DNA of 63,572 nucleotides, the filler included, from Stramenopiles sp. TOSAG23-2 (taxonomy: Eukaryota), in NCBI GenBank assembly GCA_900128395.1. It is 6 parts of 6 records of this genome, joined end to end, with 100 filler letters (N's around TTAATTAATTAA, not from the genome) between each part and the next. Parts side by side here need not be neighbours in the genome. Positions count along the whole stretch, not along the records: positions 1 to 10,561 come from LT650007.1; 5 more parts are not named here. One strand, written 5' to 3'. This document shows, piece by piece, positions 3,179 through 7,345 of this stretch; positions within the stretch are counted from its first letter, which is position 1, and each line of letters opens with the position of its first letter. A model generated the notes under the pieces. That model was not told the origin of the DNA and did not search any database. It worked only from the letters and a program-made list of their open reading frames with translations. A program made the translations under genes and the position numbers.

Positions 3179-6100
3179 ATGTATAAAAATCATTCTGAAG
3201 AGTTATCGAAACAAGGATTATACAAATTAATAGACCGACTTGATCCAAATATCAAAGTTTCAGCTGATGTTTGTTATTTTGTAAAAACGATTACTGATGA
3301 TTTGTTATCTTCTTCCATTTCCAATATGCTTCGAGAGTTGAAAATTCCGAGTGATCATGATAATGATCCTCATGGACAATTTAAATGGGATATTTTACCT
3401 AGTATAAAAAAGGAAATGCAAAAACAAAATAATTCATATTTTATGGATGGAAGTGGAGGAGTCAAACAAAATACAGTAGCTCGTGTTATGCATGTATTAA
3501 ATGCATGTGATTTAAAGATGAAACATGGAGTGCATCATTCAACTACATATGAAAATATCGAAGAGACGAGCAACGCCGTATTATTTTCAGGTTGCAATTC
3601 AATTAATGAAATTGCCACTTATATGTCTGATAATATCAATGATAAATATATTGCATCGCAAATAATTAATGGTATACCTATTGAAAAGCTTATTATATCA
3701 CCATGTGGAAGAAGACATTTTCAACAAGGTCTTGCATCATTGATTGAATTTAATGATAAAATTGAAGCTATATTATTGGGTGAGACAAAACACGATACAA
3801 AATTAGTTGATCGAAACAATATGAACAGTGGCATATTAACAAAAATTCCAAAATGCATAAACTTTTTTGGTCAGAATGGCAAAGGAATTGATGCGATTAC
3901 AATATGGCTAGTAAAACATTCCAAATTAAATCTTTCTCGAGAGATACCTGAAGTTATGTGGAAATATATTTTTTCATTTTCTGCACAAGAAGATCTTCAT
4001 CAAATACTTTGTACAGCACTTTGTGTTGATAATAAGAATAAAATGCATACAATCTTTAACAAAAATGATGATGATGATAATAATAACAACAACATGGTGC
4101 AAAACAACGTTAAGAAATTACCTTCAGGAATATCTATAGATGAGGGAAAAAATGCGATTAATAGTGCATCCGTGACAACAGTTGATATAAATTTCCGATG
4201 GCAATCATTAAATGGCAAGATTTTAAAAACATTGGAAAATAAACAATCAAATGATGTAATTCCAATTTTTGATTTATTGTTTCCTGAAATTAAGGAAGCA
4301 ATCAGTAATGAAGATCCTAAGTGCGAATGGTTTCAAACAAATGATGATGCATTTACCTTGTTGCAGCCATGTATACAGCATGAATATGGTAATTTTGATA
4401 TTTGTCAAACATCTTACAAAATATTAACATATGATGCATTAGGTAATATGACCTTAGATCTAAGAAATGCTCGTATTATTAGAAATAGTAATAATAAAAT
4501 GGAAAATCAATCAAGTAGTTGGTTTTCTATTTTGCGTAATGTAACAAAAAACGTCAAGAAAGAAGAACAATCCTCCGTTATTGATATTGTAATATTGCCT
4601 TTCAAACAATATCAGGAAAAACAAATGAGTGGGGAAGAAATATACCGTGTATTAAAACAGGTTCATCCAGATACTAATATTAGTAGGGTTGGTATGGATA
4701 CTATGATAGGTTTACTGTATACACATACGCAACCATTGTTGGTTCAAACAGCATTAAATCAAAAACGAATGCGACTTCCTAAAATGTCAAATGTACAACT
4801 TCTTCAAAATTTAACTGCCAGAGATATTCAAGATGCTGTTAGAACTGTATTTCCAGGTGAACTTGCAAAAAATGCTGTTTCTGAAGGGACTAAAGCAATA
4901 ACAATGTGTACGTCGAGAGATATTAACTCGCACGTGCCTTGGTATCGAAATAATAGCGGCAATAAATCGACATGGTCAGCAGATGCACGCCTTCAATTTC
5001 CAGTCCGTTTAATAGCATGGGCAACATACCAAATAGGTAAAACCATTCTTGGTATTGATAAAAATGAAGAGACAGCTAAAAACTGTGATTATCCTTCTAA
5101 TATCAGTAAAGAATGCTGCGTTTATTTATCTGCAGTCCTTGAATATTTATGTGCAGAAATCCTTGAGCTAGGTGGCAATGCTGCTCGCGATAATAAAACA
5201 AGCAAGCTATCGGCGTATCACATAATGTTAGGTATACGTGGAGATGGAGAGCTAAATAAACAATTTGAACAAGTCTGTTGGTACGAGAGCGGTTATCTTC
5301 CAATAACTTCGTATATGAAACAAAAAGTTGCTTTTGACCTTAGTGTCCTTGGCGATGTAAGGCAAAAAGATGCTTTGGAAGAATTATCATTAAATATTTC
5401 GAATGAACAAATAGCAAAAGGTGTTGTAATGGATAATATTTCCACATGGAAATTAGCAAGATGTGCTCAAATTCCGTTTGCAAATGTATTCGATATTGCT
5501 CCTAGATTAGAAAATATTTTAGACAACATTATTTCTAGTTTATTAAATATTGCACTTTCTGTTAGTAGCAAAGAAGATGATGGGCCTAGGTATATAGATT
5601 ATTATACCATGAATTATGCACTTTCATGTCATAAGTTATTTATGATTCATGCAATTGTTCCAACAATAGTTGAACATGAAACAACAGTAGACTCAACATT
5701 AAGAGATCAATGGTGGTTAAATGATGATTTAGAGTCAGATGTTGATAGTGATTCTGATAATGAGACTGATAGTGATTCTGACAATGAGACGGATATGCAT
5801 CTGGTTGATCCTCGTCATGTATTTTCAGCTAGTAAAATTGCTAATTCTAGCGAAATGCTACTTGGTAATATTTTTATAGAACAAAATGAAAAAGAATACA
5901 ACTATCTTTTTGGAAAATTACAAAAGGAAAGAATGCGTCATATCCAGAAAACTTTCAAGACAGATGGTAATCATAATAATATGATAGATTTCTTGCGATT
6001 AAAAGAGAAAATCGAAAATAAATTGTCGTCTATTAATATTTCAAGAAAAAATATAAGCAATCGCGCAATATATGCCATGCATGTTGCATTTGAACGTTTC

Positions 6101-7345
6101 TTTGTTCAATTGTTTTCTAGTGTTAATTTAATGGTAAAATCTGGTGAGAAAGATAGTACGAATACCCCCCGTTGTGTTCAATTGCACGATATTGAATTTG
6201 CATTAGCATTGAAATTGGGGAATTACAAACAAGCTGAAGCAATAGCTAGAAATATGACACGTAAGACAAACTTTTTCATGAAGCGGGAGCGCTTGCTAAT
6301 TCAATTAAAACAGACTGCGCTTGCTAATTCAATTAAAACAGACATAGCAAAACGAATGGAAGGTCTTCAAAATAACATTGATATGCTGAAAGAGGATATA
6401 CGCATATGTCCTAATCGAGAACGATACCATGGATTTAAAAAAGATATGGAAACCTTGTTGACCAACAAGGAACAATTAAATGATAAAATGAAAGAAATAA
6501 TTAATAATGCAAACCAAAGAGGGAAACATGTAAACGAAGAAAACAAAGAAGAAATACCAGCTACACTAAAAGTTGATAAAGTGGGTATATTTTCTGATTT
6601 TGTAAATTGTGTAAATGTGTATATTGAGTTGGATGAACTTAATGGGAAGACGGATATTGGTACATTTGGTAGTTTAAGGAACACCATTTCGAGTTCATCC
6701 AATCCACAGTTAAAAAATTGTGTTCAAATTACACTAGCAAAACTTGCTCGTGAGAAATTTCTAGTTAAAAATGGAAATAAATACATGCTAAACAAAGAAG
6801 AAAATGAGCAGTCAATGGGTACTTTTCTTGGTGGAGAAACGATAAATACATTTGTACCTGTCGATAGCAATAGTGAGTTCTCTGGAACTTCCACGCTTGC
6901 AACACATGATGAAATGAAAAAAATGCAAAGGGAAACGAGTAAATCATCAATAGGAACTATTTCGAAAGTACTGACGTATGAAATGCTGCGGGAACTTTGT
7001 AATGGGTGTCAAAAATTAGATGCTGCAGCAAATGCATTGTCTGATATTTATTTTCAAAAAGGCATAAATGATAATAATAATAATTACAATACTTTGAATC
7101 ATCAATGGAATTGCTATTCAAAACAATATTTCCGAGACGCTTTTACAAACCGAAAACATGATTTAGACTTAAGTGATTTTCCGATTGAAACTGCTGCGAT
7201 AGATGGTTTACAGCTGGTTGTTGAAAGTTATTTATCAAATTTATTTCGATGTGCAATTGCACTTGCAAAATACAATGGAAGGAAAGTATTAAAAGTGAAA
7301 GATGTGCAATTTGCAAATAAAATGAGAACAATATTATTCTTGTGA
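3179..7345 (+). CDS. Multi-histone-fold fusion protein: degenerate H2B, F-box-like motif, H2B-H2A-H4-H3, coiled coil, H1-like domain, H3
   Basis: H2B: IYRVLKQVHPDTNIS..ARDIQDAVRTVFPGELAKNAVSEGTKAI; H2A: ARLQFPV..VYLSAVLEYLCAEILELGGNAARDNK..HIMLGIRGDGELNK; H4-like: WKLARCAQI..MNYAL; H3-like twice: MRHIQKT..AFERFFVQLF..DIEFA and MKKMQRET..AIDGLQLVVESYLSNLF..RKVLKVKDVQFA. Confidence 0.9.
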   Translation: MYKNHSEELSKQGLYKLIDRLDPNIKVSADVCYFVKTITDDLLSSSISNMLRELKIPSDHDNDPHGQFKWDILPSIKKEMQKQNNSYFMDGSGGVKQNTVARVMHVLNACDLKMKHGVHHSTTYENIEETSNAVLFSGCNSINEIATYMSDNINDKYIASQIINGIPIEKLIISPCGRRHFQQGLASLIEFNDKIEAILLGETKHDTKLVDRNNMNSGILTKIPKCINFFGQNGKGIDAITIWLVKHSKLNLSREIPEVMWKYIFSFSAQEDLHQILCTALCVDNKNKMHTIFNKNDDDDNNNNNMVQNNVKKLPSGISIDEGKNAINSASVTTVDINFRWQSLNGKILKTLENKQSNDVIPIFDLLFPEIKEAISNEDPKCEWFQTNDDAFTLLQPCIQHEYGNFDICQTSYKILTYDALGNMTLDLRNARIIRNSNNKMENQSSSWFSILRNVTKNVKKEEQSSVIDIVILPFKQYQEKQMSGEEIYRVLKQVHPDTNISRVGMDTMIGLLYTHTQPLLVQTALNQKRMRLPKMSNVQLLQNLTARDIQDAVRTVFPGELAKNAVSEGTKAITMCTSRDINSHVPWYRNNSGNKSTWSADARLQFPVRLIAWATYQIGKTILGIDKNEETAKNCDYPSNISKECCVYLSAVLEYLCAEILELGGNAARDNKTSKLSAYHIMLGIRGDGELNKQFEQVCWYESGYLPITSYMKQKVAFDLSVLGDVRQKDALEELSLNISNEQIAKGVVMDNISTWKLARCAQIPFANVFDIAPRLENILDNIISSLLNIALSVSSKEDDGPRYIDYYTMNYALSCHKLFMIHAIVPTIVEHETTVDSTLRDQWWLNDDLESDVDSDSDNETDSDSDNETDMHLVDPRHVFSASKIANSSEMLLGNIFIEQNEKEYNYLFGKLQKERMRHIQKTFKTDGNHNNMIDFLRLKEKIENKLSSINISRKNISNRAIYAMHVAFERFFVQLFSSVNLMVKSGEKDSTNTPRCVQLHDIEFALALKLGNYKQAEAIARNMTRKTNFFMKRERLLIQLKQTALANSIKTDIAKRMEGLQNNIDMLKEDIRICPNRERYHGFKKDMETLLTNKEQLNDKMKEIINNANQRGKHVNEENKEEIPATLKVDKVGIFSDFVNCVNVYIELDELNGKTDIGTFGSLRNTISSSSNPQLKNCVQITLAKLAREKFLVKNGNKYMLNKEENEQSMGTFLGGETINTFVPVDSNSEFSGTSTLATHDEMKKMQRETSKSSIGTISKVLTYEMLRELCNGCQKLDAAANALSDIYFQKGINDNNNNYNTLNHQWNCYSKQYFRDAFTNRKHDLDLSDFPIETAAIDGLQLVVESYLSNLFRCAIALAKYNGRKVLKVKDVQFANKMRTILFL

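Follow-up and report, generated by a model that had tools for sequence, protein, structure and literature searches.

Can a present-day eukaryote carry its core histones in series in one polypeptide, and what would such a protein do? The question is raised by a locus in a 63,572-nucleotide stretch of DNA from Stramenopiles sp. TOSAG23-2 (GenBank assembly GCA_900128395.1), referred to here as the window. The original prediction, made from the sequence, had placed an intronless open reading frame (ORF) at 4637-7330, coding for an H2B-H2A-H4-H3 chain with a second H3. We find that the locus is genuine: an uncultured marine protist carries here a gene that encodes five core-histone-derived folds in one chain. 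A single stop-free frame runs from 3179 to 7345 on the forward strand and encodes 1388 amino acids (aa) plus a stop codon at 7343-7345; the protein is called P0001 below. Judged from the base composition of the contig, the chance of 1388 codons without a stop is about 1e-50. Several histone folds in one uninterrupted frame were thus correctly foreseen, and the boundaries had to be revised. Position 4637 marks the beginning of H2B, and the ORF opens 1.46 kb upstream, so that about 480 N-terminal residues had been missed and the assumed length of about 900 aa becomes 1388 aa. Searched with the whole protein, the histone family PF00125 is matched in 3 stretches with 50.7 bits (E 2.6e-13) versus a gathering cut-off of 26.4.

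Histone folds along the chain

We established a set of profiles and structural models with which to assign the individual segments. Paralogue profiles were built from eight IMG/VR giant-virus loci, the canonical primate cluster P0002 and the metagenome cluster P0004 (see below), and 4 purpose-built profiles were run against 7 family proteins with hmmsearch. An AlphaFold2 (AF2) model was calculated for aa 470-1388 from a 13-row alignment (mean predicted local distance difference test score, pLDDT, 52.8; predicted TM score, pTM, 0.36), with pLDDT over the H2B, H2A, H4-like and first H3-like folds put at 67-88 overall. The match lists of the structure searches with Foldseek and VIA were filled by the H2B-H2A domain, and the structure comparison therefore covers that domain. 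Feature coordinates are collected in Table 1.

The H2B-H2A doublet is the best defined part of the protein. Hidden Markov models (HMMs) recognize H2B with an independent E-value (iE) of 7.3e-22 and H2A with 1.1e-22, and aa 482-709 (4622-5305) match single-chain H2B-H2A chimeras in the PDB at E 8.3e-31 using phmmer. In the AF2 model, pLDDT is 75-86 for H2B and 68-88 for H2A from alpha2 to alphaC. The modeled part superimposes on the solved chimeras with a VIA Z-score of 23.9 and a root-mean-square deviation of 1.8 A over 178 residues, and Foldseek returned TM values of 0.83-0.89. The predicted docking-like stretch ELNKQF..GYLPI is present in the translated ORF, and the clear H2B and H2A that had been expected were confirmed by phmmer, HMM and superposition. 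Identity to the canonical proteins, by BLAST against reference domains, is 40.5% for H2A and 43.5% for H2B. According to the model, H2B pairs with H2A as in the solved pair.

The two folds that follow had been described as a divergent H4-like fold and an H3-like fold at approximately 5920-6215, and both do model as histone folds with pLDDT of 59-87. In the H4-like segment, AF2 helices span aa 753-762, 770-795 and 808-821 (5435-5641; 10, 26 and 14 residues, pLDDT 67-83). The family profile of this segment matches H4 in hhalign with P 3.1e-4 over 64 columns, compared with 0.51 for H3, 0.16 for H2B and 0.097 for H2A. The fold is thus supported, and the H4 identity is only probable in view of the sequence searches without a match discussed further below. 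For the first H3-like fold, helices were modeled at aa 904-928, 938-951, 961-988 and 1002-1012 (pLDDT 59-87), i.e. core helices of 14, 28 and 11 residues after a long lead-in helix. HMM (iE 8.7e-4 for aa 919-1003) and family profile (hhalign versus H3, 9.2e-13) agree with this assignment, and PF00125 matches with E 0.004, under its cut-off. An acidic linker had been anticipated between the two folds and was found; its AF2 pLDDT is below 50, and relatives have an acidic tract at the equivalent place.

Histone partners bridge at their L1 and L2 loops. DSSP assigns bridge residues at model positions 31-32/207-208 (H2B L1, H2A L2), 299/531 and 337/490; in the H4-like and first H3-like folds these are single residues that immediately precede the second and the third helix. 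Both H2B-H2A and H4-like/first H3-like can therefore be read as handshake dimers, and the model indicates pairing of the H4-like fold with the first H3-like fold. In a viral structure library, H4-H3 doublets match the AF2 model at E 0.006-0.02, with the matched query part unspecified. A feature search likened aa 720-1020 to archaeal and viral histone-fold clusters (0.77-0.85), which is below counting level and was set aside.

The protein ends in a second H3-like fold. This had been predicted at 6880-7330; its H3-like nature stood, and the fold proper was narrowed to aa 1315-1382 (7121-7324), with AF2 helices of 11, 28 and 10 residues. HMM (iE 5.6e-8, aa 1333-1383), Pfam (E 7.3e-5) and family profile (hhalign versus H3, 1.5e-19) are in good agreement, and the top PDB sequence matches are CENP-A (E 0.009) followed by H3 (0.05-0.4). 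All four core-histone paralogues are hence present in series, H2B, H2A and both H3 copies with significant profile matches and H4, as a probable assignment, by the family profile. The canonical tail motifs ARTKQ and SGRGK were, as predicted, not seen when the P0001 translation was read by eye.

Between the two H3 copies, aa 1016-1116 are modeled as two helices (model residues 547-607 and 611-647, pLDDT 59-76) and gave no Pfam family at a meaningful E-value. The Y region after them has pLDDT below 50, and its Cys/Trp lead-in (C..C ... W.C) to the last fold aligns with P0008, P0023 and P0024, three of the relatives described below. A winged-helix or linker-histone-like globular domain considered by eye at about aa 1140-1210 (6600-6810) has no Pfam support and low pLDDT, and counts as a lead only. 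At 6283-6301 and 6031, RNA contigs of two studies share deletions (1, 2, 1, 6, 1 and 3 letters) and many substitutions, and a metagenome fragment (P0006) carries a different in-frame sequence at this spot; the stretch just after the first H3-like fold is fast-changing.

Table 1. Features of the histone ORF, its contig and the window
Feature	Positions	Strand	Residues of P0001	Basis or remark
Membrane-protein gene, two exons, probable intron ~1238-1350	717..2352	+		open frames 717-1283, 1351-2352
N-terminal region, colinear with the N-terminal H4 of P0023	3179..3628	+	1-150	MAFFT
X domain, common to P0023/P0009	3629..4588	+	151-470	alignment
H2B fold, insertion between alpha2 and alpha3	4622..4933	+	482-585	HMM, PDB phmmer, AF2
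H2A fold with docking segment, insertion in alpha1-alpha2 region	4964..5314	+	596-712	HMM, phmmer, AF2
H4-like fold, family-specific lead-in helix and W.LAR motif	5357..5641	+	727-821	AF2, family profile
Acidic Asp/Ser/Glu linker	5654..5818	+	826-880	net charge -16, pI 4.05
First H3-like fold with alphaN-like helix	5888..6214	+	904-1012	AF2, HMM, family profile
Two long helices, coiled-coil-like	6224..6526	+	1016-1116	AF2
Variable Y region, then conserved Cys/Trp lead-in to last fold	6527..7120	+	1117-1314	alignment
Terminal H3-like fold	7121..7342	+	1315-1388	HMM, family profile, Pfam
Sulfite oxidase with cytochrome b5 domain	8063..9832	-		PF00174 3.3e-55, PF03404 4.6e-35, PF00173 2.5e-16
Artificial spacer: 44 N, TTAATTAATTAA, 44 N	10562-10661, 21208-21307, 31842-31941, 42423-42522, 52998-53097			read from sequence

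A family from metagenomes and its domain plan

P0001 does not stand alone. An exhaustive search of representative sequences with aa 716-1388 returned 7 proteins, comprising two near-identical fragments (97% and 90%), four matches on the H4-like part (P0007, P0009, P0010 and P0011) and one on the last H3. Among the relatives, P0023 (1296 aa) is full length and the best preserved, and P0024/P0010 (750 aa) is truncated, lacking the N-terminal part, while P0008, P0022/P0007 and P0011 are family fragments. P0003 (1564 aa, from a JGI metagenome contig of 6.2 kb) carries FG-type repeats and a WGR domain (E 3.9e-16) ahead of H2B and, between its H3 copies, a ubiquitin-like match that is weak (E 1.3e-3). 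The common order is H2B, H2A, H4-like, acidic tract, H3, variable region and H3, and relatives sharing it are 23-26% identical to P0001; in P0024, P0003 and P0008 both H3 copies are significant (iE 7.8e-9 to 1.9e-18). All relatives were found on metagenome contigs no longer than 6.7 kb. Going by these sequence matches, P0001 belongs to a small family known from metagenomes alone.

A separate cluster of 7 members, represented by P0004 (921 aa) and found on metagenome contigs of up to 20 kb, has the order 370-aa domain-H4-H2B-H2A-H3. P0004 is 37% identical to P0001 across H2B-H2A, and its family may be the sister of the P0001 family. When JGI metagenome contigs were scanned with P0001 and with an alignment of the H4-like motif, 0 matches were confirmed.

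The N-terminal third was aligned with its counterparts using MAFFT. Over aa 1-480, identity is 24% to P0023 and 23% to P0009, with shared blocks such as RW.S.NG.I..T.EN. P0023 opens with an H4 at aa 5-77 (HMM iE 4.7e-11; hhalign 2.3e-11), which is followed by the domain colinear with P0001 aa 150-470. No Pfam family was found for this X domain, and the P0001 N-terminus gave nothing significant against H3, H2B and H2A profiles. A feature-search likeness of aa 90-475 to the same archaeal and viral histone-fold clusters as above (0.83-0.84) is below counting level and served as a lead only. The family plan read from the P0023 sequence is H4-X-H2B-H2A-H4-H3-Y-H3. A hexasome consists of an (H3-H4)2 tetramer plus one H2A-H2B dimer, and since P0023 opens with a significant H4, the plan of 2 H3, 2 H4, 1 H2A and 1 H2B has hexasome stoichiometry. 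The earlier description as a whole nucleosome plus second H3 is accordingly replaced by six folds at the level of the family.

The locus and its origin

The window consists of six contigs, ordered from the longest (10561 bases) to the shortest (10475 bases) and split by five identical spacers. As these spacers join separate contigs, physical linkage to the histone ORF exists only within positions 1-10561; the claim of neighbors on the same contig holds there and fails for anything beyond 10561. This 10.56-kb contig contains three genes, encoding a membrane protein, the histone ORF and a sulfite oxidase, and its GC content is even (0.29-0.34). No second histone-like ORF was found in any of the six pieces. 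On another contig, an ORF at 21475-24984 (-) encodes a 1169-aa kinesin with its motor domain at the C-terminus (E 1.2e-109) and ankyrin repeats at the N-terminus.

The upstream gene had been called an intron-containing gene of the major facilitator superfamily (MFS). It reads as a multi-pass membrane protein, and the gap between its exons has GT..AG ends and a TACTAAC box, as read from the sequence. Membrane protein and probable intron were thus retained, with no RNA joint seen for the intron, while the MFS label was a motif recognized by eye, and the second exon matched no Pfam family at 1e-5. The sulfite oxidase neighbor was correctly named (Table 1). Its relatives at 100%, 86%, 79%, 71% and 70% identity come from metagenomes only, and the best named ones are from a chlorarachniophyte (59%) and dinoflagellates (54-55%), which points to an uncultured marine protist without close sequenced relative as the host. 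In summary, the gene context looks cellular.

Independent DNA and RNA assemblies were used to examine the locus. The locus or parts of it occur in 20 listed runs from 13 studies (one possibly the source), four of which were aligned to the locus. A second sample of the same organism (X2) shows 0 differences over 3466-3815, 3895-4902, 5076-5690, 6385-7214 and 7193-8793, and its 7193-8793 contig joins the ORF end to the sulfite oxidase gene. Continuity of assembled contigs across the flanks was therefore found for the 3' junction, and the 5' junction (2352-3179) is bridged by no listed piece. In a seawater metagenome (X3), cover extends to 4102-5103 and to both neighbors. Transcript evidence came from two ocean RNA libraries with colinear contigs: a metatranscriptome (X9) with an 1834-nt contig colinear with 5545-7373 and a second contig of 577 nt over 4989-5565, and an oligo-dT library (X17) with five contigs between 4102 and 7371. 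Such RNA-library contigs indicate presence and colinearity and are silent on level, strand or start. The longer X9 contig shows 38 differences and 63 gap letters, and thus represents a related strain. In the two RNA runs, bins 2801-3150 and 7701-8050 are empty and 3151-3850 nearly so, which is evidence for neither side. X9 and X17 contigs end at 7371-7373, 26-28 bases past the stop codon, where the X2 DNA contig continues; as a weak hint, this may be the mRNA 3' end.

Two alternative explanations concern the locus itself. It could be an artefact, either because separate histone genes were wrongly assembled into a chimera or because a decaying pseudogene happens to lack stops. The source assembly is indeed small and fragmented (21 million letters; six contigs of ca. 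10.5 kb), and annotated animal "fused histones" are known mis-annotations according to the available part of one survey (PMC9145170; the published work cited here is represented by such parts), P0002 being one such case. However, the second sample is identical over 3466-8793, in pieces, one RNA contig spans 5545-7373, the open frame is far too long for chance, and relatives at 23-26% identity share the domain order. Moreover, folds that are about 40% or less identical to canonical histones do not result from wrongly joining adjacent canonical genes. We consider an artefact very improbable. The other explanation is a giant-virus origin, with the gene recently endogenised or viral DNA sorted along with the cell, which would be compatible with either functional reading discussed below and would leave ours unchanged. 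Outside this locus, Nucleocytoviricota are the one group with confirmed fused core histones, as far as the available parts of two papers show (PMC9145170, PMC10919886), IMG/VR giant-virus H2B-H2A(-H3) repeats are 27-41% identical to aa 488-708, and every relative sits on a short metagenome contig. BLAST against 28 reference domains, which include one canonical reference only and do not amount to a phylogeny, gave a mixed picture: a viral reference scored best for the terminal H3 in 3 of 5 members (the canonical one in the other 2), for the H2B of P0023 and for the first H3 of P0024, whereas the canonical reference is the best match for H2A in 4 of 4 members (70% identity for P0003) and for H2B in 3 of 4; the first H3 of P0001 had no match at 1e-2. 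Further points against a viral source are the two-exon neighbor with its probable spliceosomal intron, the cytochrome-b5 sulfite oxidase with its protist relatives (59% identity at best among named sequences), the even GC content and the WGR domain of P0003. IMG/VR scans with the family-specific H4-like motif, H2B-H2A alone, P0004, P0023 and P0003 yielded 0 confirmed matches, where scans with a single protein find near-identical sequence only. No giant-virus hallmark families were detected among 22 long ORFs scanned, most of them on other contigs. Taken together, a viral origin seems unlikely to us; a contig of only 10.56 kb could still lie within an insertion of viral origin, and the earlier label "domesticated virus-like" is a possibility and not a finding.

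Within IMG/VR, giant-virus contigs carry H2B-H2A doublets as well as H2B-H2A-H3 triplets, with H4 encoded separately. On one 211-kb contig (L001:4356-6244), tandem H2B-H2A-H3 triplet genes encode 315 and 291 aa, with an H4-like ORF at the same locus.

Functional reading and comparison with known systems

Charge and key residues were used to characterize the likely mode of action. P0001 has a net charge of -9 (pI 6.4), and P0023 and P0024 reach -39 each. The fold domains carry -4 to +6 (H2B +4, first H3 +6, last H3 +4), compared with +20 for canonical H3 and +12 for H2A. Site assignments follow the human residue numbering: 5 of 6 acidic-patch positions are kept in H2A (E56, E61, E64, D90 and E92, with E91 replaced by G) and 2 of 2 in H2B (E105 and E113), and in four relatives 4-6 of the 6 H2A sites remain acidic. 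In H2A, R42 is replaced by N, R77 by K and R81 by Y; H3 R83 is N in the first copy and P in the last, and H4 R45 reads F by eye. Judging by these residues, the conserved surface is the acidic patch and not the DNA path. A near-neutral chain that keeps the acidic patch and has lost the checked minor-groove arginines favors a mimic or scaffold over DNA wrapping.

The original prediction had offered a self-assembling nucleosome-like particle, a nucleosome mimic or a scaffold. The latter two fit best with charge, acidic patch and lost arginines, and we prefer a nucleosome-core mimic or scaffold that assembles internally to a particle that wraps DNA, a reading to which we assign about an even chance of being correct. 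The chain would then hold the H2B-H2A pair and the H4-like/first H3-like pair inside one polypeptide. The N-terminal region may be the partner of the last H3, in the way H4 and H3 would pair across the doublet in a P0004-type quadruplet, and the whole chain would form a hexasome-like core that most likely does not wrap DNA. Such a pre-assembled look-alike of the nucleosome core could serve as a scaffold or decoy: presumed clients, such as histone chaperones or chromatin-binding proteins, would meet histone surfaces on it, the acidic patch being the foremost of these. Lineage-specific functions might be added by the X and Y regions.

The competing view is a DNA-wrapping single-chain histone particle, acting alone or as a dimer, hexasome- or nucleosome-like, and marking special chromatin. 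Its core order H2B-H2A-H4-H3 is that of a quadruplet in a mimivirus-related metagenome-assembled genome (MAG; PMC9145170, available part), and in E. coli viral quadruplets were shown to protect DNA of about 148 bp (PMC11222145, available part). The first H3 keeps R49 and R69 and has R in place of K122, the last H3 keeps R116, K122 and D123, and the last fold finds CENP-A as its best PDB match. The mildly basic charge of the H2B and both H3 folds is in line with wrapping as well. Against this stand the negative charge of the whole chain and the two relatives, the linker at -16, the replacement of H2A R42 and R77, of R83 in both H3 copies and, by eye, of H4 R45, and the absence of histone tails. 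The self-assembling particle is disfavored on the same grounds, and we regard DNA wrapping as improbable.

Several observations weigh against a nucleosome-core mimic or scaffold as outlined above. Going by sequence, the mildly basic H2B and H3 folds make some DNA binding possible. The H4-like part has no Pfam match in aa 716-880, its family profile retrieved only designed coiled coils and no histone among PDB sequences, and against P0004 the best local alignment falls on the P0004 H4 in the expected register with E 0.56; firm H4 identity, as originally implied, is therefore not retained. The pairing of the H4-like with the first H3-like fold has the DSSP string as its one source, domain packing is unreliable at a pTM of 0.36, and the terminal H3 has a pLDDT of just 52-62, without bridge residues and without a modeled partner. 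The six-fold reading comes from P0023, a relative with 24% identity; the P0001 N-terminus compared with H4 gave 0.15-0.18 in hhalign, which is not significant, and a 3-row alignment yielded an unusable AF2 model for aa 1-480 (mean pLDDT 30.5). RNA cover starts only at about 4027. Finally, 9 of 32 listed strain substitutions in the ORF are silent and 23 of 32 change a residue, and with an expected silent share of 0.20 recent constraint appears weak.

Doublets, triplets and quadruplets, including H2B-H2A-H4-H3, are known from viruses, and none was confirmed among eukaryotic histones in the available part of Talbert et al. 2022 (PMC9145170). Irwin & Richards 2024 (PMC11222145) found 90 doublets, 32 triplets and 13 quadruplets, with quadruplets protecting DNA, and argue that the histone repeats of giant viruses are left over from an intermediate step in nucleosome evolution. 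Multiplets up to quadruplets are also catalogued in PMC13681535, and present eukaryotes generally lack fused histones (PMC10919886), in each case as far as the available text goes. Our literature search gave no "histone quintuplet" or "histone sextuplet" and no report of fused histones in protists; the supplements of PMC9145170 and PMC11222145 may list longer repeats or cellular contigs, and the available part of 10.1101/2021.05.12.443918 contains nothing on fused histones.

The closest parallel is provided by the giant-virus quadruplets (HQA/HQB/HQC; MAG ERX552270.89), which also carry core-histone paralogues in series in one ORF in the order H2B-H2A-H4-H3, lack canonical tails and have disordered linkers that can be long. 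P0001 differs in its five recognizable folds (six in a relative) instead of four, in the additional N-terminal part of 480 aa and in the roughly 300 aa that separate the H3 copies. Its charge is near neutral or acidic, the checked minor-groove arginines are replaced, and its contig carries cellular genes and has no IMG/VR match. The viral proteins bind DNA in tests, whereas P0001 is known here from sequence and model. Like the P0001 family, the giant-virus H2B-H2A-H3 triplets (L001, L002; separate H4) have H2B-H2A and then a distant H3 that ends the protein, and the P0004 cluster (X'-H4-H2B-H2A-H3) places H4 ahead of H2B as in the family plan; H2B-H2A identity of both groups to P0001 is 35-38%. 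In comparison, H2A and the last H3 are set apart in the P0001 family by an additional H4-H3 pair and by the Y region, the X domain follows the N-terminal H4, and the viral triplets are short (ca. 300-360 aa). Marseilleviridae doublets H2B-H2A and H4-H3 (PDB 7n8n, 7lv8) fuse adjacent partners in the same order, and the AF2 model aligns with 7n8n_B at Z 20.3 in VIA. However, the viral doublets are two separate proteins forming DNA-wrapping particles, and P0001 is 21-22% identical to them versus 36-44% to eukaryotic H2A/H2B chimeras in the same tables.

Among cellular systems, the hexasome has the stoichiometry of the family plan as seen in P0023 and is made of six separate basic chains on DNA, whereas the family protein is one near-neutral chain; in P0001 the sixth fold is unrecognizable, and the H3-H3 bundle is putative. 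The Sos histone domain, SPT3 of SAGA and the ABTB2 type resemble P0001 as fused folds that pair internally, act as protein scaffolds and have electrostatics unsuited to DNA wrapping; two-fold proteins such as Sos and SPT3 do not package DNA, according to the available part of a review (PMC13088155). In VIA, the AF2 doublet aligns with Sos (1q9c) at Z 20.2 and with SAGA Spt3 (6t9i_C) at Z 11.1. Those proteins have two folds and remote core-histone similarity, whereas P0001 is plainly derived from core histones, with about 40% identity to H2A/H2B and the acidic patch kept. In contrast to canonical eukaryotic core histones, which are encoded by separate short genes, near-invariant and equipped with basic tails, P0001 is one tail-less chain of 1388 aa. 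New here are the repeat number, the extra domains, the charge and the apparent cellular host.

A more far-reaching proposal, which we hold to be rather doubtful, is that of a natural single-chain hexasome in the nuclear genome of a living eukaryote. Six folds (H4, H2B, H2A, H4, H3 and H3) would fold by themselves into an (H3-H4)2 plus H2A-H2B core, representing a new chromatin particle or a dedicated nucleosome decoy. The family would in that case be a cellular survivor of the "histone repeat" stage that has been proposed for early nucleosome evolution, or would have re-invented it independently.

In conclusion, a fused multi-histone gene that lies beside cellular genes and occurs in ocean RNA libraries would give the debate on nucleosome evolution a cellular example and would raise the known histone repeat number from four to five or six. 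Structural and biochemical studies would further gain a natural histone core with internal links. If correct, the mimic reading would mean that core histones were recruited as a non-DNA scaffold with the acidic patch retained.

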